This document shows, one piece after another, positions 1,661-47,500 of a DNA stretch of 64,000 bases. The notes beneath the pieces are model-generated. The model saw only the letters and a program-made list of their open reading frames with translations, ran no database searches and had not been told where the DNA came from. Within the stretch, counting starts at the first letter, position 1. Every line of letters begins with the position of its first letter. Made by a program: the position numbers and the translations under genes. The DNA comes from an uncultured Gammaproteobacteria bacterium (GTDB lineage Bacteria > Pseudomonadota > Gammaproteobacteria > Steroidobacterales > Steroidobacteraceae): positions 36,188 to 100,187 of the forward strand of contig CAWBKN010000007.1 of assembly GCA_963789375.1 (NCBI GenBank), in the 5' to 3' direction.

Positions 1661-2449
1661 GTGGGATTTCTGGCTGGCAAGCGAGCCCTGATCGTAGGGC
1701 TCGCGTCGGAGCGTTCGATCGCCTACGGCATCGCCGGCGCGATGCGCCGCGAGGGCGCGGAGCCTCGCGTTCACGTACCAGAACGAGCGGATCAAGGACC
1801 GCGTCGTCGAGATGGCGGAAGGCTTCGACTCGGTGCTGACGCTGCCGATGGACGTCGCCTCCGACGCGGAGATCGACACGGCCTTCGCGGCCATCCGCGA
1901 GGTCTGGGACGGCCTCGACATCATCGTGCACTCCGTCGGATTCGCACCGCGCGAGGCGCTCGCGGGCCGGTTCGTCGAGAGCACGACGCGCGAGGACTTC
2001 AGGGTCGCCCACGACATCTCGAGCTACAGCCTCACCGCGCTGGCCCGCGCCGGGCTGCCGCTGATGCTGGGCCGTGCCGGCTCGATCCTGACGCTGTCGT
2101 ACCTCGGTGCCGTGCGCTCGATCCCGAGCTACAACGTCATGGGCCTCGCCAAGGCGAGCCTGGAGGCGAACGTGCGCTTCCTGGCCGCGGACCTCGGGCC
2201 CGCAGAACATCCGCGTCAACGCGATTTCAGCCGGCCCCATCAAGACGCTGGCCGCGGCCGGCGTCGGCGGGTTCCGCAAGATGCTGTGCCTCGTCGCTGC
2301 GAGCCACGCCATTGCGTCGCAACGTGACGACGGAAGAAGTCGGCAATGCCGCGGCGTTTCTCTGCTCGGACCTGGCGTCGGGCATCACCGGCGAAGTGCT
2401 GTACGTCGATGCCGGGTACAGCCACGTGGGGATGAGCTTTCCGGAATAG
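1661..2449 (+). pseudogene. fabI: Enoyl-[acyl-carrier-protein] reductase (NADH) FabI, three frame breaks
   Basis: GTG start. [34 protein letters not shown] (frame 1661), then MAEGFDS...[25 protein letters not shown] (frame 1812), then [27 protein letters not shown] (frame 2107), then [39 protein letters not shown] (frame 1661). Collinear with E. coli FabI. Breaks near 1765, 2195 and 2290. Confidence 0.85.
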
Positions 2450-2492
2450 GAAGCGGATAGCGGATAGCGAATAGCGGATAGTGGAAGAGCGG
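2442..2492 (+). repeat. TAG-heptamer array (CGGAATAG-GAAG-[CGGATAG CGGATAG CGAATAG CGGATAG]-TGGAAGAGCGG); first unit contains the fabI stop codon
   Basis: Read directly. TAG at 2447, 2458, 2465, 2472 and 2479; the last four are 7 nt apart, so they cycle through all three reading frames. About 85-90% identical by eye to the inverted copy at 2987..3031. Confidence 0.9.
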
Positions 2493-2965: not shown

Positions 2966-2986
2966 GGAGCCGCCAGCGGCGGCTCC
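2966..2986 (-). terminator. Perfect 9-bp GC hairpin (GGAGCCGCC-AGC-GGCGGCTCC) downstream of ppiD, followed on the minus strand by TTTCC
   Basis: Stem/loop read directly. Position is immediately 3' of the ppiD-side heptamer array. The T-tract is weak. Confidence 0.5.
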
Positions 2987-3031
2987 CACTATCCGCTATC
3001 CGCTAGTCCGCTATCCGCTTCCGCTATTCCG
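2987..3031 (-). repeat. TAG-heptamer array, inverted copy (minus strand: CGGAATAG-CGGAAG-[CGGATAG CGGACTAG CGGATAG CGGATAG]-TGGGAGCC); first unit contains the ppiD stop codon
   Basis: The reverse complement of 2987..3031 reads ..ACG GAA TAG CGGAAGCGGATAGCGGACTAGCGGATAGCGGATAGTGGGAGCC. Same architecture and near-identical sequence to 2442..2492. Confidence 0.9.
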
Positions 3032-4937
3032 TCGCGAACAGCTTCTCGTTCCGCTTGATCTTCGCGGTCCGCCGCAGTTCGTCCAGGTAGGAATTGAGCT
3101 CGACCGACGCGGTCTGCTGCGCCAGGTTCTGGGCGAGGTCCGGCACCTGTGCGAGCTGCGCGGCGGGGTCGCCGCGGGCGCGCCGCGGTCACCACGAACA
3201 GGGCCTGGTCGCCCGAAGCGAGCGTGGTCGTGCCCGCACTGACCTTGCCGGCGCGCGGGCCGCGGGGCCTGGAAAATCGACTTGAGCATTTCGGGCGCAA
3301 TCGGCGCCGCGGTTTCGCCCTGCGGGCCAGCGCGCGTGACGGGCTGCACCGGGGTCGGCTGGGCGCCGGCGCTCGCGGCGACCGTGGCCAGCGCTTCGCC
3401 GGCATTGATACGCTGCGCCAGCGCCTTCGCGGTGTCGGCGGCTGCTTTGCGGGCGCCCTCCTCACGCAGCCGCGCCGTGATCTCGTCGCGCACTTCTTCC
3501 AGCGGCCGCTGCTTCGCGGGCTGGTGGTCCGTCACGCGCAGGACGACGACGCTCTCGTCGCCGATCGGGATCGGCGGGCTGTTCTGGCGCTCGACTGCAG
3601 GACCTCGTTGCTGAACGCGGCATCGATGACGTCGCGGCTGGTGCCCAGGGCGCCGCCGCCCTGGCGCGTGAAGCCCTCGACCGTCTGCAGCGTCATGCCG
3701 AGCTTCTTCGCCACGCTGTCGAGTTCGCTGAGCGCGGCGAAGGATTCGTCGGCCAGCTGCTGCGACTTCTCGTAGAACGCGTTCTGGGCCTGGTCCCGCC
3801 GGAATTCGGGCTCGAGCTCCGCGCGCGCCTCGTCGAAGCTGCGCACGTGCGGGGTCTCGATTTCCTCGAGCTGGATCACGTGGTAACCGAACTGCGTCCG
3901 GACGGGGCCGGCGATCTCGCGCCTGCTGCATGCCGAACAGCGCGTCGGCGAATTCCTTGACGTACGCCTCACGCGTCGCCCAGCCGAGTTCGCCGCCGGC
4001 ATCCTTCGAGCCGGGGTCGTCGGAGTTCTCGCGGGCCAGCTTGGCGAAGTCCTCGCCGCGCCTTCGCGCGCGCCAGGATGGCCTCGGCCTTCTTCTTCGC
4101 GGCCGCGTCGTCGCTGCCCCGCTCGATGAGGATGTGGCGCGCGCGGCGCCGTTCGGGCGTCGCGTTGCGGGCCGCGTTTTCCTCGTAGTACTTGCGCAGC
4201 GCCTCCTCGGTGACCTGCACGCTGGCCGCCATGTCGGCGAGGTTGAGCTTGAGGTACTGCAGCGCCACCGTCTCCTGCGTCATGAACTCCGACTTGTGCT
4301 TGCCGTAGTACGACGCCACGGTCTCCGGGCGTCACCGCGACCTGCGCGGCAAAAGCTGCGGCAGGAATGACGGCATAGGCGATGTCGCGCACTTCGCCCT
4401 GCAGCTCGAGGCGGCGCTTCATCTCGCCCGGCGTGACGAACGCGGAAAGGGCGATGGCGTTCTGCAGCTGCGAGGTCTCGAGGTCGCGGCGGAACTCGCG
4501 TTCGAAGTCGGCCTCGCTGCGGCCCTGCTGGCGCAGCAGCGCCGCGTAGCGGTCGCGCGAGAACTTGCCGTCGACCTGCAGCGCCTCGATCCGGGTGAGT
4601 GCCTCGGCGAGCTCCGGTCGCTGACGCGATAGCCGCTTTCGTTCGCGCGCTGCACGAGCAGCTCGCGCGCGATGTAGTCGTCGACCAGCTTCTGCTGCTC
4701 GGACTTGACCAGCTCGGGCGGCAGCTCGTCGCGCAGCTGCTGCTGCAGCTGGGACTGGCGCTCCTGCCAGGCGTTGACCAGGGTCTGCGCGGGGATCTTC
4801 TCGCCGTTGACCGTGGCGGCGGCCGTCGTCGTCGACGACTCGAACTGGATTCCCCAGAAGATGAAGACGACGGCGATCGCACCGAGGAACGTCGCCGCGA
4901 ACCAGCCCGTGATCTTGTCGCGAATCTTCTGCAGCAT
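3024..4937 (-). pseudogene. ppiD: Periplasmic chaperone / peptidyl-prolyl isomerase PpiD, about 7 frame breaks
   Basis: N-terminus MLQKIRDKITGWFAATFLGAIAVVFIFWGIQF (TM anchor). Parvulin block ARHILIERGSDDAAAKKKAEAILARAKA...GGELGW...GPVRTQFGYHVIQLEEI. C-terminus ..ASVELNSYLDELRRTAKIKRNEKLFATE-TAG. Pieces lie in ORFs 4419..5003, 3532..4422, 3969..4319, 3011..3931 and 2989..3465. Confidence 0.8.
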
Positions 4938-4944
4938 GACTTTT

Positions 4945-4984
4945 CTTAGGGGATAGCGGTTAGCGGATTGCGGATAGTAAGAGG
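4945..4984 (+). repeat. Solo TAG-heptamer array (CTTAGG-[GGATAG CGGTTAG CGGATTG CGGATAG]-TAAGAGG) between tRNA-Asp and the ppiD start
   Basis: Read directly. Same GGAAG-like/TRRGAGG architecture as the other arrays. Plus-strand orientation although both flanking genes are on the minus strand. Confidence 0.8.
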
Positions 4985-5542: not shown

Positions 5543-8002
<2,460 letters not shown>

Positions 8003-8102
8003 GTGGGGTCTCCGGACCGTCTGGCTCCCGCTCGCGCGTCGGCGCGGAGCGGGTTGGGTGAGGGCTTCAAAATATTATCGCGCCCTGTGGCGCGCAGGGG
8101 GG

Positions 8103-8131
8103 AGATTTGGGCGGCGGACCGAACTTTCAAG
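8103..8131 (-). promoter_or_regulatory. Candidate sigma-32 (heat-shock) promoter for lon
   Basis: The minus strand reads CTTGAAA-N13-CCCAAATCT (consensus CTTGAAA-N13/14-CCCCATNT), about 100 nt upstream of the lon start. lon is a classic RpoH regulon member. Confidence 0.5.
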
Positions 8132-8141
8132 GCCGGACGGA

Positions 8142-8253
8142 CGGCTAGTGACTAGTGGCTAGTGACTAGTGACTAGTAAGAGGTGCCGCTGCAGCGTGAC
8201 GTTCGGCTGCACCTCCTACTAGTCACTAGTCACTAGCCACTAGCCACTTCCGG
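8142..8253. repeat. Inverted pair of CTAG-rich TAG-heptamer arrays forming a long hairpin between clpX stop and lon promoter
   Basis: Left arm CGGCTAG TGACTAG TGGCTAG TGACTAG TGACTAG TAAGAGG (8142..8183). 28-nt centre with its own TGCAGC/GCTGCA stem. Right arm (8212..8253) reverse-complements to CCGGAAG TGGCTAG TGGCTAG TGACTAG TGACTAG TAGGAGG. Confidence 0.9.
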
Positions 8254-9558
<1,305 letters not shown>

Positions 9559-10324: not shown

Positions 10325-11620
10325 CAGGCTCCGAAGTTCATCAGTTCCTTGAACGTGGACGGCTGGTCGGTGACCTTCGCCCGCTCGAGCAGATAGTCCA
10401 CCACCTGGTCCTCCATCACCATGTTCTCGACCTGTCGCATTGCATCGGCATTCTGGCGGTACGCGCCGAGGATCGCATCCGGATCGGGGTAAGTGGCAGC
10501 CAGTTCAGCGAGCCGGGCATCGACCCGCGCGCGGTCGAGCTGCAGGCCCGTCGTCTTGACCAGCTCGCCCACGAGCAGGCCAAGCGCAACGCGCCGTCGG
10601 GCCGGCTCGACGAACGTATCCGGCGGCGGAACCTGCGATGCATCTTTCGCGCCAATGCGGCGGGCAGCGTCCACCTGCATGTCGCGGACCTGCTGCTCGA
10701 CCAGCGCCTTCGGCGCGTCGACCGGGTTCGCCTCGATGAAACGGTCGAACAGCTGCTGCTTCAGCCGCGCCAGGACGTTGGCCTGCAGCTCGCGGCGCAT
10801 GTTGTCCGCCACTTCGCTCAACAGTTGCTCGATACCGCCCTCGGTCACGCCGTACTCGCGGCAGAACTCGTCGTCGAGCGGCGGCAGCTGCTTTTCCTCC
10901 ACCTTCTTCACCTGGACGGAAAAATCTGCCGTGCGGCCGGCCAGGTCCTTGTTGTGGTACTCGGCCGGGTAGCCCACCGTCACCTGCTTCGCTTCACCCG
11001 CCTTGACGCCGGTGATGCCCGTCTCGAAGTCCTTGAGCATGCGGCCCGCGCCGAGCACGACCGCGACGTCCTTGCCCTCGCTGCCCTCGAAACCCTTGCC
11101 ATCGAGCTGGCCCTGGAAGTCCATCGTCACGCGATCGCCTTCGCGGCTCTCGCGCTCGACCGCTTCGAACTTCGGACGCTGCTCGCGGAGGTTCTGCACC
11201 ATGGCCTCGATGTCGGCCTGCGTGACCTCGGCGACCTGCCGGTTCACGGCCAGGCCCTCGACCCTGGCCGAGCTTGACCTCGGGGAAGACTTCGAAGATC
11301 GCGCGGTACTTGAGGTCTTCGCCCGGGGCGGTGGCGACCGGCTCGATGCGCGGGCCGGTGACCGGCACCAGCTTGGCTTCTGTGACCGCCTTCGTGAACG
11401 TCGACTGGACCAGGTCGCCGACGACCTCCTGGCGGACCTGCGCGCCGAACTGCTGGCGGATCACCTTGATCGGCGCCTTGCCCGGGCGGAACCCCTTGAG
11501 CTTCGCGGTGCGACTGACCTTCTTCAGGCGCTCGTCGACGGCCTGCTCGATCTGTTCCTTCGGAACGCTGACTTCGATGCGGCGCTCGAGGCTGCCGGTC
11601 GATTCGACGGAAACTTGCAT
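10324..11620 (-). pseudogene. tig: Trigger factor, one frame break near 11260
   Basis: MQVSVESTGSLERRIEVSVPKEQIEQAVDERLKKVSRTAKLKGFRPGKAPIKVIRQQFG (ORF 10994..11638) continues in ORF 10324..11247 (..VTMDFQGQLDGKGFEGSEGKDVAVVLGAGRMLKDFE.. FKBP-type PPIase domain). Confidence 0.88.
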
Positions 11621-11688: not shown

Positions 11689-11787
11689 GGGGGAAGCGGT
11701 TAGCGGTTAGCGGTTAGCGGATAGGAAGAAACTCGATCCCAGCTATTTGCGGCCTGTCCGCCACCCGCTATCCGCTATCCGCTTGAA
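11689..11787. repeat. Inverted pair of TAG-heptamer arrays between tRNA-Leu and tig
   Basis: Left arm GGGGGAAG-[CGGTTAG x3, CGGATAG]-GAAGAA (11689..11730). 33-nt spacer. The right arm (11764..11787) reverse-complements to TTCAAG-[CGGATAG CGGATAG]-CGGG and sits 2 nt from the tRNA-Leu 3' end. Confidence 0.88.
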
Positions 11788-38503: not shown

Positions 38504-41500
38504 TCACCGGTCGTCGTGGCTCAGGACCGCATCCGGCAGGTTGATGCCATGGTCGACGATGGTGAGATCGAGGCTGGCAAGCTCGCCGGCACTCCTGCCC
38601 ACGTTCTCACGCACGCCGGGCAGATCCGTCTCGACGCGGTCGCCGTCCCGGAAGTCGCTGGACACCAGGCTCAATGCGCTGGCGACAGCATCCGTGGCCG
38701 CATTCGACTGTGGCATGGTAATGACCAGCGCGCCGTCCACGAACGTGATCGTGTAGTTGCCGGCGGTCAGGCCCTGCGGGGTGATGACGTACTCGCCGAT
38801 GTCGATCGCGCCCTGGCTCGTGCCGCCGTAACCCAGCGTCCCGCCCAGCACCGTCTCGGTCTCGCCGTTGACGAAACCGCTGTAGCTCACGCCGTTGCCG
38901 CCGACGTACGCCTGGCCGTCGTAGGTCCGCTCGTCGTCGTTGGCGGTCACGGTCAGCGGCGCCGGAGTGATCGTCAGCACGCCATCCGCGTACGTGATGT
39001 CGTAGTTCCCCGCCCTCCCCGTACTGAACGTCTGCGCACTCGGCGTCAGCGGAGCAGCCGCACCCGCCGGCCGTCGTGGCAACCGCAGTAGACGATAGCG
39101 TCGCCGTGCCGAGCGCGTCGCCCGCAGCCAGCGTGCCGGTCGTCACCGTCACGGCACCGGAGGTCGGGTTCGCCCCGCCGTAGCTGCGCGCCGCGTCGTT
39201 CGCCCGCACGGTGATCGGGCGCTGGCTGATGGTCAGCGCACCGTTCGCGAAGGTGATGTCGTAGTTACCTGCCGTCAACCCCTGGGGGGTAATGACGTAG
39301 CTGCCGGCATCCGTCGCGCCCTGGCTCGAACCGCCGTACGACAGCGTTCCGCCCAGCACGGCGCTGGTCTCGCCATTGACGAAGCCGCTGTACGTGACGC
39401 CGTTGCCACCCGCGTAAGGCGAACCGTCGAACATCCGCGAGAAGTCGCTCGCCGTCACGGTGAGCGGCGCCTGGCCGATGACCAGCGCACCGTTGACGAA
39501 GGTGATGGCATAGTTGCCCGCGGTCAAGCCTTGCGGCGTGATCGCGTAGGTGCCCGCATTCACGGCGCCCTGGCTCGAACCGCCGTACGACAACGCGCCA
39601 CCCAGCACGGCACTCGTCTCGCCATTCATGAAGCCGGTGTACGTCACGCCGTTGCCGCCGCTGTAGGCCGCCCCGTCGTATGTCCGGCTGTCCCCATTCG
39701 CGATCACGCTGAGCGGCGCCTGCGTGATCGTCAGCGTGCCGTTCGCGTAGGTGATCGCATAGTTGCCCGCCGACCCCGTGGTGAACGTCTGCGCGCTCGG
39801 CGCGAGCGGCGCAGTCTGCCCCGCCGCCGCCGTGGCGGTAGCGGTCGAACTGAGCGACGCAGTGCCGAGTGCATCGTTGTTGGCCAGCGTGCCGCCCGTG
39901 AGCGTCACCGTGCCGCTCGTCGGGTTGGCATAGCCGTAGTACCGGCTGCGATCGTTAGCCTGCACCGTGATCGGACGCTGCGTGATGGTCAGCGTGCCGT
40001 TCGCATACGTGACCGCATAGTTGCCGGCCAGTCCGCTGGTGAAGGTCTGCGCGCTCGGAGTGAGCGGAGCCGCCGTCCCGGCTGCCGTCGTCGAAGTGGC
40101 CGTCGAGGACACCGCCGCCGTGCCGAGCGCGTCGGTCCCGACCAGCGTGCCGGCCGTGAGCGCCACCGCGCCCGTGGTCGGGTTCGCGTTGCCGTACACG
40201 CGACTCTGGTTGGCAGCGGTCACCGTGATCGGCCGCGGGCTGATGACCAGCGCGCCGTTCGTGAAGGTGATCGCGTAGTTACCCGCCGTGAGACCCTGCG
40301 GCGTGATGACGAACGTGCCCGCATTGGTCGCACCCTGGCTCGTGCCCGCATAGGACAGCGCGCCACCGAGCACCGCACTCGTCTCGCCGTTGACGAATCC
40401 GCTGTAGGCGACGCCGTTGCCGCCGCTGTAGGCCGTGCCGTCGAACGTCCGCGCAGCGTTGTTCGCGGTGACCGTGAGCGGCGCCTGGGTGATGGTCAGC
40501 GTGCCATTCGCATACGACACGCTGTAATTCCCCGCCAGGCCGCTGGTGAATGTCTGCGCGCTCGGGGTGAGCGGAGCCGCCGTTCCCGCCGCCGTCGTCG
40601 CCGTGGCCGTCGAGGACACGGTCGCCGTGCCGAGCGCATCCGTCCCGACGAGGTTGCCGGTCGTCACGGTGACGCCGCCCGGGTCGGATTCGCGCCGCCG
40701 TACGCACGGCTCTGGTTGTTCGCCGTGACCGTGATCGCCCGCGGGCCGATGGTCAGCGCGCCGTTGGCGTAGCTGATCGTATAGTTGCCCGCGGTCAGAC
40801 CCTGCGGCGTGATGACGTAGGCAGCCCGCATTCACGGCGCCCTGGCTCGTGCCGGTGTAGGCCAGCGAGCCGCCGAGCACCGAGCTGGTCTCGCCGTTGA
40901 CGAAACCACTGTAGGCCACGCCGTTGCCACCGCTGTAAGCCGTGGCATCGTAGGTCCGCGCGTAGTCGTTCGCGGTCACCGTGAGCGGCGCCCGCGTGAT
41001 GCTCAACGCGCCGTTCGCGTAGCTGATGGCGTAGTTGCCCGCCGTCAGCCCCTGCGGCGTGATGACGTAGGAGCCGACGTTCGTCGCGCCCTGGCTCGTG
41101 CCTGCATACGACAGCGAGCCGCCGAGCACCGAGCTGGTCTCGCCGTTGACGAACCCGCTGTAGGTCACGCCGTTGCCACCGCTGTAGGCGAGCCCGTTGT
41201 ACATCCGCGCTGAAGTCGCTCGCCGTCACCGTCAGCGGCGCCTTGCCGATGGTCAGCTGGCCGTTCACGAAGTTGATCGCGTAGTTCTGGGCCGTCAGCC
41301 CCTGCGGGGTGATGGCGTAAGCGCCGGCATTCGTCGCGCCCTGGCTGGACCCGCCGTACGTCAGGAGCCCCGCCCAGGACCGAGCTCGTCTCGCCATGCA
41401 CGAAGCCGCTGTAGATGACCCCGTTGCCGCCGCTGTAGGCGAGTCCGTTGTAGGTCCGCGTGAAGTCGTTCGCCGTCACGTTCAGCGGGGCCGCCGTGAT

Positions 41501-44500
41501 CCGGCCCACGCTGCCCGTGATCGTCGACGGCAGGCTGTAGTTCGAGAGGTCCGTCGTGCCGGTCGGCGAGTAATCGCTCGGCGTGAGCGACACCGTGACC
41601 TGCTTGTTGTCGCCGACGTTCGGATTGTCGTAGGTGCCGACGGTCTCGGTGACCGTCGCGCCGTCGCTGCCCACCCAGCCGGTCAGCAGGTAATTGCCCG
41701 GCACGAGGGTCGCGAGCGTGGTGCCGTCGTAGACCCGGCTGATCGAGCCCGCAAGGTTGCCCGTGACCACCACCAGCGGCCGCGACGAGATCGTGAGCAC
41801 GCCGTTGACGAACGACAGCATGTAGTTGCTGCTGGTCAGGCCACCGGGGACGATCGTGTACGCCCCGACCGCCGCCGCGCCCTGGCTCGTGCCGCCGTAG
41901 GTCAGCGTGCCGCCGAGCACCGCACTGGTCTCGCTGTTGACGAACCCGCTGTAGGTGACGCCGTTGCCGCCGCTGTAGGCGGTACCGTCGTAGACGCGGG
42001 TGAAATCGTTCGCCGTCACAGTGAGTGGCGCCTTGCCGATGGTCAGCGCGCCCGGCTGGAAGCTGATCTCGTAGTTCGCCGCCGTGAGCCCCTGCGGCAC
42101 GATCTGGTACGCACCGGCGTTGGTCGCGCCCTGGGCCGAGCCGCCATAGGACAGCGCGCCGCCGAGCACGGCGGTGCTTTCGCCGTTGACGAAGCCCGTG
42201 TAGGTGACGCCGTTGCCGCCGCTGTACGCGAGCCCGTTGTACATCCGACTGAATGCGTTGGCCTGGACCGTGAGCGGCGCCTGCAGGATATCCAGGCCGC
42301 CGTTCAGGAACGTGATCGCGTAGTTGGTCGACGTCAGGCCCGAAGGCGTAATGACGTACGGCCCCGCATTGATCGCGCCCTGGCTGGTGCCGCCGTAGGC
42401 CAGCGTGCCGCCCAGCACCGAGGCCGTCTCGCTATTGACGAATCCAGTGTAGGTGACGCCGTTGCCGCCGCTGTAGGCAAGGCCGTTGTACGTCCGCATG
42501 AAGTCGCTGGCCTTGATGGTCAGCGGCGCCTGCGTGATGTTCAGCGCCCCGTTGGCGAAGCTCAGCGCGTAGTTGCCCGACGTGAGCCCGGAAGGCGTGA
42601 TGACGTACGAACCGACGTTCTTCGCGCCCTGGCTCGTGCCGCCGTAGGCCAGCGTGCCGCCCAGCACCGCGCTGGTCTCGCTGTTGACGAACCCGCTGTA
42701 GGTGACGCCGTTGCCGCCGCTGTAGGCCAGCCCGGTGTAAAGCCGGCTGAAATCGCTGGCCGTGACGGTGAGGGGCGCCTTGCGAGATCGTCAACGCGCC
42801 GTTCACGAAGCTGATGGCATAGTTGCCAGACGTCAGCCCGGCGGGGTGATGACGTACGAACCTGCGTTCTTCGCGCCCTGGCTCGTACCGCCGTACGCCA
42901 GCGACCCGCCGAGCACGGCACTCGTCTCGCTGTTGACGAACCCGCTGTAGGTGACGCCGTTGCCGCCGCTGTAGGCGAGCCCGTTGTACATCCGGCTGAA
43001 GTCGTTCGCCGTGATGCTCAAAGGCGCCTGCGAGATGTTCAGCGCGCCATTGGCAAACGCTGATCGCATAGTTGCTCGAGGTCAGCCCGGACGGCGTGAT
43101 GAGGTAGGAACCCACGTTCTTCGCGCCCTGGCTGGTGCCGCCGTACGCCAGCGACCCGCCGAGCACGGCACTCGTCTCGCTGTTGACGAACCCGCTGTAG
43201 GTGACGCCGTTGCCGCCGCTGTAGGCGAGGCCCGTTGTAGGGGCGACTGAAGCCGCTGGCCGTCACGGTGAGCGGCGCCGGCGTGATCGTCAGAGGGCCG
43301 TTCGCGAAGCTGATCGCGTAGTTGCTCGAGGTGAGCCCCGACGGCACGATAACGTACGAGCCCGCATTGATCGCGCCCTGGCTCGTGCCGCCGTAGGCCA
43401 GCGTAGCCGCCCAGCACGGCACTCGTCTCGCTGTTGACGAAGCCGCTGTAGGTGACGCCGTTGCCGCCACTGTAGGCGAGGCCCGTGTAGGCCCGGCTGA
43501 AGGCGCTGGCCGTGATGGTCAGTGGCGCCTGCGTGATGCTGCCGATGTTGCCGGAGAGGCTCGTGGGCAGGCTGTAGTTCAGCAGGTCGGTCGTGCCCGT
43601 GGGCGTGTAGTCGCTGCGCGTCAGCGCCACCGTCACCAGCAGGTTGCTGCCGACATTGGCCTGCGAGTAGGTGCCGACGGTCTCCGTGACCGTCGCGCCG
43701 TCGCTGCCCACCCAGCCGGTGAGCTGGTAGTTGGCCGGGGTCAGCGTGGCGACGGTCGTGCCGGTGTAGGGGCGCGTGACGGAGCCGACGAGGCTGCCCG
43801 AGATGAGCGTGAGCGGTCGCTCGACGATCGAGAGCACGCCGTTCACGAACGCGATCTGGTAGTTACCGCTGGTCAGGCCGCCCGGGATGATCGTGTAGTC
43901 GCCGACGTTGATCGCGCCCTGGCTGGTGCCGCTGTAGGTGAGCGTGCCACCGAGCACCGAACTGGTCTCGCTGTTGACGAACCCGTTGTAGATGACGCCA
44001 TTGCCGCCGCTGTAGGGGACTGCGTCGTACTGCTTGGTGTCATTGTTGGCGGTGACGGAGAGCGGCGCCTTGGTGATCGACCCCACCGCCGCAGTCAGCG
44101 GCGTGACACGGTAGCCATAGACCGGCCTCGTGCCGTTCGTGACGTTATACGAGTTGGCGCCCGACACCGTGATGCTCTTGCCGGTGCCGACGTCCTTCGT
44201 GTCGTACAGGCCCGTGCTCGCGGCGTTCACATGGATGGTGTCCCCATCGATCGCGCCGCCGACGGAAGTGTAGTTGCTCGCCAGCAGGTTCGCCGTCCGC
44301 GTGCCGTCGTACTGCTTGGCGACCGTGCCGGTCAGGGTCGCCGTCACGGTCGGCGCTCGCGTGTAGATGAGGCCGTTGCCCGTGCCGAGGATCGTGCCGC
44401 CGTAGGCCGTGTCGTATTGCTTGAAGTCGTAGACGAGCCCGCCTCGCGTGTCGAGGTCGGGATTCGTCGAGTAGACGCGCCAGTACCCGCCGCCCGACAC

Positions 44501-47500
44501 GGCGAACGCGTCGGAACCGCGGTAGTTGCGGAAGACGTTCTCGGTGACGAGTGTGATGTCGTGGCCACTCGTCGCGGAGATCACGTCCTGTACGGTGATG
44601 CCGTAGTTGAGGGCGGTGACGAACCTGCCCTTTATTGCGGAACACCACATCCGCGTTGAACGTGTAGCCGGTGCCGGGACCGGCGCCATCGCCGAACACG
44701 ATCTCGCCCGTGCCGTCGGCCCGGCCGATGACGATGGTCTGGAAGCCGGGCTGGATCCGGTCGAGCTCGCTCGCCTGCAACAGCAGCTCACCGGCCGCAT
44801 TCATCACCCCAATGGAACTCGCCGGGTCGAAAGGCGCGAACTGGATCGTGCCGGAGCCACTGAGGTTGCCCTGCGGCGTAGAAGTTGTTGGTGAGATACG
44901 CCTGGTTCGTGGCATTCACGCCGAACATGTAGATGCCGGAGCACTGACCTGCAGCGACGTCAGCGGCGTCAGGCGCCGACCGGGTCGTAGATGCCGACGG
45001 CTGCGTTGGTTGCCCGCACGTCAGGTTCCTGGCGCCGTCGACGCCGCCGATCAGGGCGACGCCTTCGCCACCCTGGATCGTCAGGTCGTTGGCCAGGGTC
45101 ATCGGCCCATTGAGCGAAACGGCGGTGCCCGATCCTGCGAGAATGTCGTAACCGAGCGTAATTCCTGACCCCTGGACGGCGAACCCGAGGCCGGCAGCCC
45201 CGCCGCTCCACGCGCCGGTCTGGGTGACCACGCCATCGGCGTATACGGACAGCGAGTTGGCCAGGTTCTGTGCGCCGAGGGTGATCGCCGTACCCGGCGT
45301 GCCGCCGGTGGTGTCGAGATTCAGGGTCCCGGTGACGCGGTTCGCGGCCAGCGTGATGTCGGCATTCGGCTGGTGGAGATCGAGAGCGGTGACCGGGTTG
45401 ACCAGCGTCAACGCGGCCGTGGTCGAAGCGTTCGTCACGACGACTGACGCCGTCGACGGCGCCGTGATCGTCACCCCGTTCAGCAGGTTGCCGCTGGCGC
45501 TCCAGCGTGACGTCGCCGCCGGCGATGAGCGTAGTGTTCTTGGTTGTTGTCGGTCAGTTCGAGCCAGCCTGTCCTGGGTCGAGCCATCCACCCGACGTGA
45601 CGCTAGAGCGTGCCGGTCAGCAGCTCTGGATCGGCCGATAGCCCGAGCGGAGCGACGTCCTCGAGGTCGCTGCCGTAAAGTCGATCGATGACGTCGCGCA
45701 CCACCGGCCGCGGCACGGCAGCCTGATGACGACGCATCGCCCGTGTAGGGCTGCCAGGTTCAGGTCGCGGCCGTCGTACCACGTCACCGCGCGCAGGCTG
45801 TTGCCTGGGTTGTTCAGCAGGATGTCGCCCACGCCCGCCGTCGCCGTCAGCCGACGTCTGCCCGCGACGTCTCAGTGCGCCGGTCTGCGTGATGTTGCCC
45901 TCCGACCGCAGGTCGAGGCAGTTGACGCAGCTGCTCAGGGTCTGCGCACCGAGGCTGATCGAGTTGTCCGTGACCGTGCCGCCCGTAACGTCGAGGAACA
46001 TGGTCGCTGCGTGGCGACGTTATTCCCCAGCACGATGCTGGCGTTACGCTGGGTCAGGGCCAGGTCCGTGACGGCATTGGCCAGCGTCAGCGACGCGTTG
46101 GTCGATTCGTTGACGACTTCGACGGTGGCGGTCGACGGCGCCGTGAGCGAAACGGCGTTGAGCCGGTTGCCCGCGGTATTGACGAAGACGTTGCCGCCCG
46201 CGACGAGCGTGGTGTTCTTGCTCGGATCGCTCAGCTGGAATGGATTGCTGCTCTGGGCGATGCTGCCGCCGGACGTCAGCGACAGGTTGCCCTGGAGCGC
46301 GAACGCGCTGTAATACGACGACGGCGAGCTGATGGTCAGGCCCGGCGCGTTCGGATAAGCGATGCTGACGTTACCGAGCTGGCTGGTGCCGCCCGTCGGA
46401 AGAGTGACAAAGCCGCCGTTGGCGTCGGCGTACGTGCTGTAGATGCTGACGTTGTAGACGCCCCCGTCGACATACACCCGCTGCAGGTTGTTGCCGGTAT
46501 TGCCGAGCAGGACGTCCCCCGTCCCGCTGATGTCGATGCTGGTGATGCCGTACGCACCCCCGACGACGGTGATCGGCGCGGTCTGCGTGACGTTGCCGCC
46601 CGCAGTCAGGCTCATCCTGCCAGGGTTGCCGATCACGGACGCGTTGAATGCGATGTTGCGACTCGCGTACAGGTTCAGCGTGGCATTGTTCACCCAGCTG
46701 ACGGTGTTGTTGACGAGAACGTCACGACCCGCTCTCCAGCCGTTCGTCGCGGTGCCGGTCCAGCCGACGGTACCGTTGACCGAGATGTCGCGATAGGCGT
46801 TCAACGCCAGCGCGTTGTTGCTGCTCCAGCTGACGCTGTCGTTGATGAAGATGTCGCCGTTGCCGCCGGTTCCGCCGGCGGTCGTCTGGATGATGACGTT
46901 GCCCGACCCGAGGTTGGTGCTGAGCTGTGCGCCGGTGATGTCGCCGCCGCTCGGCGCGATGATGTAGTCGTTCGGGATCGATCAGCCAGGTGCCGGTCGT
47001 GCCGCCCGGTGCCAGCGTCGTGACGACCGCGCCGTCCGCCACGTTCACGTGCGGCCGCCGAGGTCTCGATGAAGCCGCCGTCGCCGCCGTTGGGCGCGCT
47101 GGCATCCAGCGTGCCGCCCACGTTGACCGTGCCGGTCTGCCATGTCGCCGAGCAGCCGGATCGTGCCGTTACGGTTCTCGACGGTCTGCGCCTCGATCAC
47201 GCCCGTGTTGTTCACGACCGTGTTGAGCAGTTCGCCCGCGGCCTGCGCGGTCATCAGCACCTGCCCGCCGTCGGCCTGGATCAGGCCGCCGTTCTCGACC
47301 AGCGCATTCACCGCGCCCTGGTCGACCGTGACGTTGAGCAGGCCGTCGCCGGCGACGTCGAGCGTGATCGCATCGCCCGCGGCGAGCGCCACAGTGCCGA
47401 AGCGCGCGCTGATCATGCCCTCGTTGCTGACGTTCGCGCCCAGCAGCGCGACATAGCCGCCGTCGGCGCCTGATCGAGCCCTGGTTGAGCACGCTGCCGC

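Follow-up and report, generated by a model that had tools for sequence, protein, structure and literature searches.

A paired heptamer-repeat array in the clpX-lon spacer of a soil gammaproteobacterium and its possible role at the clpX 3' end

What occupies the spacer between clpX and lon in the DNA presented here, a 64-kb stretch of a gammaproteobacterial contig (the whole stretch is hereafter called the window), and what might it do there? The spacer holds an element of 112 bases, a near-perfect palindrome built of TGRCTAG 7-base repeats. An earlier note on this DNA, made from the letters alone, had placed it from the clpX stop to just short of the -35 box of lon, and this placement holds: a single base separates the clpX TGA stop (8256-8254) from the onset of the element, the first TGGCTAG unit begins 7 nucleotides (nt) past the stop on the coding strand, and 11 bp lie between the end of the element and the CTTGAAA (8131-8125) of the putative lon promoter. 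All genes in this part of the window are on the minus strand (Table 1). Here, we provide evidence that the element is a member of a multi-copy class of 7-nt arrays adjoining gene boundaries. Comparison with metagenome copies further indicates that units turn over in these arrays while position and architecture persist, and that the copy at clpX-lon appears almost unchanged in several lineages, with its centre found inverted. Our preferred reading, to which we assign a probability of roughly 45%, is that a paired YGRNTAG array occupies a clpX terminator slot, where DNA processes would maintain the array and the RNA stem would define the clpX 3' end and cut read-through.

The element consists of two inverted arrays and a centre that is half-palindromic in itself. 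Tandem Repeats Finder called period-7 arrays at 8145-8177 and 8218-8248 (4.7 and 4.4 copies; 92-95% matches), and together with a repeat search this identifies head-to-tail 7-nt units, two or more in number, as in heptameric simple sequence repeats. An inverted-repeat search returned arms of 53 nt with 87% complementarity. By mirror analysis, the symmetry of the element follows i + j = 16395, and only two mirror pairs in a 41-bp core are non-complementary (8151/8244 and 8179/8216). The clpX-sense RNA folds at -89.6 kcal/mol (z -10.6), which none of 200 shuffles matched, and the DNA at -49 kcal/mol (z -9.0). The stem measures 41-49 bp, with a core of ~43% G+C in a genome of 67%. Some details of the initial description needed revision. 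Ten CTAG tetranucleotides and five units per arm had been counted in the earlier note; we find nine CTAG (5 + 4), and the clpX arm has four full units plus degenerate end units, the lon arm five. The several ACTAGT (SpeI) sites reported for the element are indeed there, five in number, and they are all that the 64 kb contain. Of the flanks thought to be conserved, TA(A/G)GAGG stands at the inner end of both arms, whereas CCGGAAG is found on the clpX side only. The inner end of the clpX arm, UAGGAGGUG, resembles a Shine-Dalgarno sequence. In the clpX-sense RNA, the two inner ends (8209-8218 and 8177-8186) read UAGGAGGUGC and GCACCUCUUA; the former is a near-perfect Shine-Dalgarno sequence, the latter resembles the 16S rRNA 3' tail, and both are paired together in the stem. 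Such a Shine-Dalgarno-like inner end was absent from the arrays of other phyla examined and is thus no general feature.

The window holds seven arrays at five sites, all in its first 12 kb. The sister arrays E1a, E1b, E2 and E3 (Table 1) have in common a period of 7, a terminal TAG, GGAAG-like outer ends and purine-rich inner ends, and because the clpX-lon element shares these traits, the initial description of it as a variant of a heptamer element is correct. E1b is inverted relative to E1a at a distance of ~500 bp. E2 sits 12 nt upstream of the ppiD ATG (4937-4935, minus strand), its G-rich strand being the non-coding one. E3 was considered as an array abutting the tig start codon, which was rejected, as homology places the tig start at 11620, ~70 nt off.

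Unitigs from eight metagenomes (sediment, rhizosphere and soil) were aligned to the clpX-lon locus. The clpX 3' end is joined to the complete hairpin, its centre included, in contigs from runs X25, X29 and X32 and probably also from X26 (the X25 junction reads ...GGACCAC TAG GAAG), and an X27 contig joins the hairpin to the lon-side flank CTTCTGCCCCTTGATTCGCGGCCTGTTGCC. The element is therefore real and common to at least two lineages. In every flank-linking contig (runs X25, X26, X27, X28, X29 and X32), hairpin and flank align to opposite strands, with strand-switch joints 8147<->8256 in X25, X26, X29 and X32. The mismatches observed (5, 2, 2, 3, 4, 5, 3) are close to those expected if the centre is flipped and the arms are fixed (4, 3, 2, 3, 5, 4, 3), and the hairpin centre therefore exists in two orientations. 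Exchange between the arms may truly make the centre flip-flop, or else the window assembly may have it in the wrong orientation.

When the flip is allowed for, extra differences in the hairpin of X25, X29 and X32 amount to a net 0-2 in 287 nt as against 7 differences in 113 nt (~6%) for the adjoining clpX codons of the same contigs, an estimate from three short contigs, with runs picked by shared 31-mers under an 88% identity filter, that may be biased. The lon-side spacer is strongly diverged in X27. The centre has a depth of 2-8, like clpX, and was seen only at the clpX-lon locus; being single-copy, its constancy cannot be explained by copying from other arrays. Together, these comparisons suggest that the hairpin at clpX-lon is under constraint and more conserved than the adjoining clpX codons. 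The arms reach a depth of 47-729 versus 5-60 for clpX and occur with several different flanks and centres, and arrays of CGGTTAG and CGGATAG reach 300-1200 in the metagenomes.

Unit number and unit sequence differ at the array ends between copies. One X32 contig continues past the clpX stop as CAC TAG GGAAG TGAATGG TGAGCGG TGAATAG, and before the ppiD ATG the CAT is followed by GGAAGAAGCGGATAG in X29 and by GGAAGTGACTATTGACTGA in X27. Sorted by boundary, the units are TGRCTAG or TGAATAG-type at the clpX stop and CGGATAG or TGACTAT-type at the ppiD ATG. Concerted evolution within arrays or selection on the architecture, as proposed from the single sequence, is thus supported: position and architecture persist at both boundaries, whereas the units are replaced.

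The window comes from a soil gammaproteobacterium. A Burkholderia origin, which the gene order had at first suggested, was rejected: the best matches of the window Lon are 94% identical metagenome proteins, one of which is labelled Steroidobacteraceae. The gene order tig-clpP-clpX-lon-hupB-ppiD is kept in six metagenome contigs with Lon identities of 90-94%, and directly behind the clpX stop each of the six has a strong palindrome other than that of the window. In L123 this palindrome reads CCGGAAATAGGGGACAC...GTGTCCCCTATTTTCCGG and that of L125 is related to it; both are terminator-shaped because they end in a U-run (UUUU). Judged from these six contigs, the post-clpX stretch is a clpX terminator slot that is hypervariable. 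A second, terminator-shaped palindrome family, AATAGGGGACA..TGTCCCCTATTTT, occupies the slot in many relatives (L123 4480-4560; L125 9830-9940; loose ends of X29-X31 at window 8248-8253, such as GAGAATGTCCCCTATT), and its L123 member opens with CCGGAA, like the heptamer element of the window.

In the reading that we prefer, replication slippage would make the units uniform, and template switching or recombination between the arms would keep them complementary and flip the centre. The clpPX transcript would fold into a stem of ~41-49 bp that defines and protects the 3' end of the clpX mRNA, either as an exonuclease barrier or as a substrate of RNase III, an enzyme that prefers long perfect duplexes. 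The stem would also lower read-through towards the lon promoter region. The element would thus replace a canonical terminator without being one. An insulator or terminator role at clpX-lon is plausible on comparative grounds, because every relative has a strong hairpin after the clpX stop, two of them terminator-shaped, and because the hairpin appears unusually conserved across lineages.

Several observations weigh against this reading, among them the possible bias of the conservation estimate. No heptamer array was found in the 8-22 kb available from each of the six relatives. The element resembles intrinsic terminators as a strong stem-loop right after a stop codon, in the slot of the L123 and L125 UUUU hairpins. 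However, it was not called in a terminator scan of 7800-8500, its post-stem tail CCGUCCGUCCGGCC is without a U-tract, its core has ~43% G+C in a genome of 67%, and its stem, at 41-49 bp, by far exceeds the length known from intrinsic terminators (~5-15 bp). A separate conserved hairpin with a T-run, 50 nt downstream, could do the terminating. The clpX-lon locus was present in none of the RNA runs in which it was looked for, and DNA runs with the wider region match mostly the clpX coding sequence. In 18 stop-adjacent metagenomic hairpins, the more stable strand was split 9 versus 9 (p = 0.64), and by this lack of strand asymmetry nothing favours RNA-level over DNA-level selection. For the arrays of Xanthomonas, too, no regulatory role was found (Rehm 2015, PMC4692102). 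Selection at the RNA level as read from G-U asymmetry was considered for the window hairpin and rejected: the two differences between the arms are both G-U on the clpX-sense strand, the two strands fold nearly equally (-84.7 versus -86.0 kcal/mol), and the other hairpins are split evenly. An Rfam search of the element returned sub-threshold matches only, to eukaryotic microRNA-precursor models, i.e., generic long hairpins.

How far the class extends was assessed in two collections. A scan of a genome collection for CTAGTGRCTAGTGRCTAG matched at least 119 stretches (L001-L119; 854 kb). Among the matches listed, TGRCTAG arrays occur in Planctomycetota, Acidobacteriota, Bacteroidota, Chloroflexota, Cyanobacteria, Caulobacterales, Burkholderiales, Veillonellaceae, Patescibacteria and others, with inverted pairs in L011, L030, L033, L034, L036, L040, L047, L054 and L090. 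These 854 kb contain 185 perfect period-7 arrays of at least three units as against 7-8 for periods 6 and 8, and 77 of the 185 are made of units other than TGRCTAG. A metagenome-collection scan for GGAAG-YGGNTAG-YGRNTAG matched at least 120 stretches, with 126 distinct arrays among the matches listed. Their unit number has a secondary peak at four, their distal end is often CTTCC, and an inverse partner lies within 220 nt in 31 of 107, mostly at an arm spacing of 17-86 nt. A stop codon is found at most 15 nt upstream of 89 of the 126 arrays compared with 32 of 113 control windows. Single arrays can mix CGGATAG, TGATTAG and TGACTAG units (L207, L236, L128). GGAAG was rejected as a universal flank: among the matches listed, only 3 of 154 TGRCTAG array boundaries across phyla carry it, which makes it a lineage feature or a decayed unit. 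Decayed or variant units of this GC-rich soil lineage are the best reading of the array flanks. An open reading frame (ORF)-based test of convergent gene context was dropped, because TAG-bearing arrays end any open frame that enters them in GC-rich DNA. Different heptamer arrays are often adjacent (L066, L060, L111, L071, L207), e.g., (TACCGAA)n(CTAGTGG)3(CGGGTGG)n, and a heptamer array can be nested in a longer unit, as in the 60-nt tandem repeat at L052 199-536, each of whose five copies has CTAGCCACTAGCCACTAGTTGCTAGG.

A more far-reaching proposal would be that YGRNTAG arrays, whether single or as GGAAG/CTTCC-bounded hairpins, form a functional gene-boundary class in many phyla that is read by some partner (ribosome/S1, a nuclease or a DNA-binding protein), with the sequence constrained at individual loci and the centre switching orientation by arm recombination. 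We regard this generalization as doubtful.

The class also bears on the CTAG content of the element. The expectation that CTAG is scarce and concentrated in the element is borne out within the window, which has 20 CTAG versus 85 +/- 8 in dinucleotide-preserving shuffles. Nine of the 20 are inside the element, and the 11 outside compare with 54.9 expected under a Markov model. This observed/expected ratio of 0.20 is the lowest among the 4-bp palindromes with usable counts. The six relatives have 0.12-0.52 CTAG per kb. Where the search pattern did not force it, unit position 4 in the metagenome arrays listed was A 47, T 37, G 9 and C 7, and the CTAG unit thus carries the rarest allowed base at a free position. 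A restriction-modification system is not needed to explain the CTAG content. In L001-L119, CTAG units often shade into CCAG or CTGG units, the pattern that T-to-C decay of CTAG would leave.

In bacteria, tandem heptamers at gene boundaries have reportedly been known since 1990, when Mazel et al. are said to have described the STRR heptanucleotide repeats of cyanobacteria. Intergenic heptamers of the type GGGAATC or (GGGANTN)n were later described in Xanthomonas and Nostoc (Rehm 2015, PLoS One, PMC4692102). A Xanthomonas genome has ~185 such arrays with a modal number of four units; ~90% are intergenic and 70-75 of the ~185 form convergent pairs able to fold into stem-loops (PMC4692102). A repeat has the nearby ORF on the 5' side of the repeat, whatever the orientation of that ORF, and sometimes overlaps the stop codon; between species, array position often stays the same and length varies; a function was not found (PMC4692102). 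The arrays of the window obey the rules reported for Xanthomonas on unit number, pairing and position. They consist of 7-nt units, about four per array, and their G-rich strand has its 5' end next to an ORF, at a stop on the coding strand or a start on the other strand. The element is intergenic with its G-rich 5' end <50 nt from the ORF boundary, as are E1a, E1b and E2, and its convergent pair forms a stem-loop according to inverted-repeat search and both RNA and DNA folding. The window arrays differ from the Xanthomonas type in their unit YGRNTAG (here TGRCTAG), their GGAAG/CTTCC ends, the TAG in every unit and the CTAG in the C variant, and in their hosts, which belong to a soil lineage of Gammaproteobacteria and to many other phyla. 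The G-quadruplex subclass GGGNATC (PMC4692102) is not represented here: TGGCTAG and TGACTAG contain no GGG, and without a G3 tract YGRNTAG units cannot form such a quadruplex.

Arrays of TAACTGA next to start codons are known from Beggiatoaceae, Cyanobacteria and Bacteroidetes (MacGregor 2015, PMC4679880). Like the STRR, they resemble the arrays studied here as intergenic tandem heptamers, often a few bases from a start codon, that are patchy across phyla and without an established function. STRR and TAACTGA repeats differ in unit sequence and, unlike the window pairs, are mostly direct arrays, with one indirect repeat reported in a Beggiatoa genome (PMC4679880). In L111, GGACTGG, a rotation of STRR1, stands next to TGACTAG units. 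A third comparison is with REP, BIME and REPIN elements, extragenic palindromes that are mobilised by RAYT transposases and stabilise upstream mRNA. They share with the element the form of ~100-nt extragenic hairpins near gene 3' ends in many copies. REP arms, however, are unique imperfect palindromes with a GTAG head, whereas the arms of the element are tandem heptamers without an internal REP palindrome, and REPINs are alike as whole copies, whereas the copies here have only their units in common.

Gene-boundary heptamers in bacteria were surveyed in 2007 and 2015 with no function or mechanism established, and none of the papers searched contained the TGRCTAG repeat strings. New here are the YGRNTAG unit family with its TAG in every unit, the C variant of which gives stop codons in six frames, and the recurrence of TGRCTAG arrays across many phyla. 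Also new is that the architecture persists at one orthologous boundary where the units are replaced, and that one copy, which has an invertible centre, appears better conserved than the codons next to it. If the conservation is true, the clpX-lon hairpin would be a convenient single locus to test what these arrays do. For annotation the message is modest, namely that the clpPX unit ends with the element, just upstream of the putative heat-shock promoter of lon.

The main rival to a role at the clpX 3' end, which we consider rather unlikely, is that the palindrome is a neutral or selfish by-product: a slippage-expanded heptamer microsatellite that was duplicated in inverted orientation and is tolerated in a non-essential spacer with no effect on clpX or lon. 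According to the account of Mrazek 2007 given in PMC4692102, heptamer repeats are over-represented in many bacteria, which was ascribed to polymerase slippage. The missing arrays in the six relatives, the variable array ends and the absence of a bias of hairpin stability to the RNA strand would all fit. The sister hairpin E3 is missing in relatives; its centre is absent from the eight metagenome runs, one contig having 34 unrelated bases instead. It is difficult to reconcile with neutrality, however, that the hairpin and its single-copy centre are near-identical where clpX codons differ by ~6% and the lon-side spacer is strongly diverged. Moreover, the adjacency of arrays to gene ends is strongly non-random, and the inverted pairs that make up ~30% of arrays are not produced by slippage alone.

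Alternatively, the element could be a protein-binding array on DNA or RNA, with a factor that binds the units or a cruciform and modulates the lon heat-shock promoter or translation at the boundary. The sequence itself, centre included, appears conserved beyond what pairing requires, arrays abut start and stop codons whatever the gene orientation, which is a DNA-level rule, and immediately downstream of the element comes the -35 box. S1, Csp and CsrA have been proposed as binders of similar heptamers (MacGregor 2015, PMC4679880). Yet unit position 4 is free, positions 1 and 3 are variable, different units substitute for one another at the same site, and no candidate protein is known. The heat-shock operator of HrcA, CIRCE (TTAGCACTC-N9-GAGTGCTAA), had no match in the window at up to three mismatches, and the promoter is kept in relatives without the array. 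We regard this explanation as improbable.

Very improbable, in our view, is a small non-autonomous mobile element, similar to MITEs (miniature inverted-repeat transposable elements) or REPINs, that was inserted after clpX by a transposase encoded elsewhere. The inverted-repeat ends GGAAG...CTTCC, the CCGG that borders the element on both sides in the window, arms at 20-70 times the clpX depth in soil metagenomes with several flanks, and a post-clpX slot that is a hotspot for different palindromes could be taken as its traces. However, the X25 copy (CAC TAG GAAG) is without the CCGG flank, the centre is found only at clpX-lon, and other arm copies have other centres and share the repeat units alone. 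In addition, GGAAG is rare at array boundaries across phyla, arrays differ by whole units in the manner of microsatellites, and no transposase was seen nearby.

An artefact of error-prone assembly is hardly credible: frameshifts in the tig, ppiD and fabI-like genes of the window and a centre oriented differently from every metagenome contig that links centre to flank would be in line with it, but because independent metagenome unitigs from at least four runs carry the same hairpin at the same locus, and with equivalent hairpins in many short-read assemblies, doubt extends at most to the centre orientation and the exact unit counts. By tblastn with L123 proteins, frame changes lie at ~11255 in tig, at ~1762 and ~2195 in the fabI-like gene and at ~4060, ~3240 and ~3185 in ppiD, whereas clpX, clpP, lon and hupB are intact. 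These frame changes in housekeeping genes look like indel errors of a long-read assembly or pseudogenes, and exact array unit counts are therefore taken with some caution.

Table 1. Coordinates of the clpX-lon element, its parts, the flanking features and the sister arrays in the window
Feature	Position	Strand	Basis
Whole palindromic heptamer-repeat element: two inverted arrays and a centre	8142..8253	.	Sequence, folding, mirror analysis, independent metagenome unitigs
clpX-proximal arm, minus-strand order: CCGGAAG (8253-8247); TGGCTAG x2 and TGACTAG x2 (8246-8219); TAGGAGG (8218-8212)	8212..8253	-	Sequence reading, Tandem Repeats Finder (period 7)
Centre ('loop'), 28 nt (8211-8184 in minus-strand order), half-palindromic, single-copy, inverted relative to flanks in metagenome copies	8184..8211	.	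Mirror analysis, unitig joints, depth
lon-proximal arm, minus-strand order: CCTCTTA (8183-8177); CTAGTCA, CTAGTCA, CTAGCCA, CTAGTCA, CTAGCCG (8176-8142)	8142..8183	-	Sequence, Tandem Repeats Finder, inverted-repeat search
clpX coding sequence	8254..9558	-	Translation; tblastn against L123 ClpX, 98.8% identity
lon coding sequence	5543..8002, or 5543..7945 from an internal start	-	Homology, tblastn
Sigma-32-like lon promoter: CTTGAAA (8131-8125), 13-nt spacer, CCCAAATCT (8111-8103)	8103..8131	-	Sequence; relatives
Small GC hairpin and ATAATATTTT in the lon leader	8069..8094	-	Terminator scan, conservation
E1a: GGAAG (CGGATAG)n TGGAAGAG, starting at the TAG stop of the fabI-like gene	2449..2489	+	Sequence, homology
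E1b: same array type, directly after the ppiD stop, then a terminator-like hairpin GGAGCCGCC..GGCGGCTCC TTT	2983..3027	-	Sequence
E2: GGGATAG CGGTTAG CGGATTG CGGATAG TAAGAGG	4950..4984	+	Sequence
E3 hairpin: arms of (CGGTTAG)3 CGGATAG, between tRNA-Leu and tig	11689..11783	.	Folding, -50.8 kcal/mol, z -5.05

Next to the element, the motif CTTGAAA-N13-CCCAAATCT is kept in the window, L121, L122 and L123, and in looser form also in L124 and L125. It may be a sigma-32 promoter of lon when compared with the sigma-32 consensus of E. coli. The hairpin in the lon leader sits between this motif and the lon start and is terminator- or attenuator-shaped. With its T-run, it is the sole canonical terminator-like site in the scanned interval, and its GCGCGATAATATTTT is invariant in the window and L120-L123. 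It may be the true stop for clpX read-through or an attenuator in the lon leader. An exact-sequence look-up of the window ClpX gave no match.

At ppiD, arrays reach the start codon or come within 12 nt of it on the non-coding strand (4935-4984; loose ends of X29 and X27 at 4938). Two relatives read CAT directly followed by GGAAG, which gives an mRNA leader (CUAUCCG)n-CUUCC-AUG without a Shine-Dalgarno sequence. This pyrimidine-rich leader suggests Shine-Dalgarno-independent initiation of ppiD.

The ~500 bp between E1a and E1b (2490-2985) have no convincing ORF, no Rfam match and no match in the fetched loci. At this position, relatives have 8-48 nt or small inserted genes (bAvd-like in L121, an AbiEii fragment in L122). 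The inverted arrays could enclose the stretch as cargo, or it could be a hotspot of insertion.

Further along the window, a very large gene on the minus strand (38607-44800), which is split into several ORFs, possibly by frameshifts, encodes an adhesin-like surface protein whose repeat domains are MBG (YGX-type) and YDG, and its DNA contains 249-nt repeats at 39218-43538.

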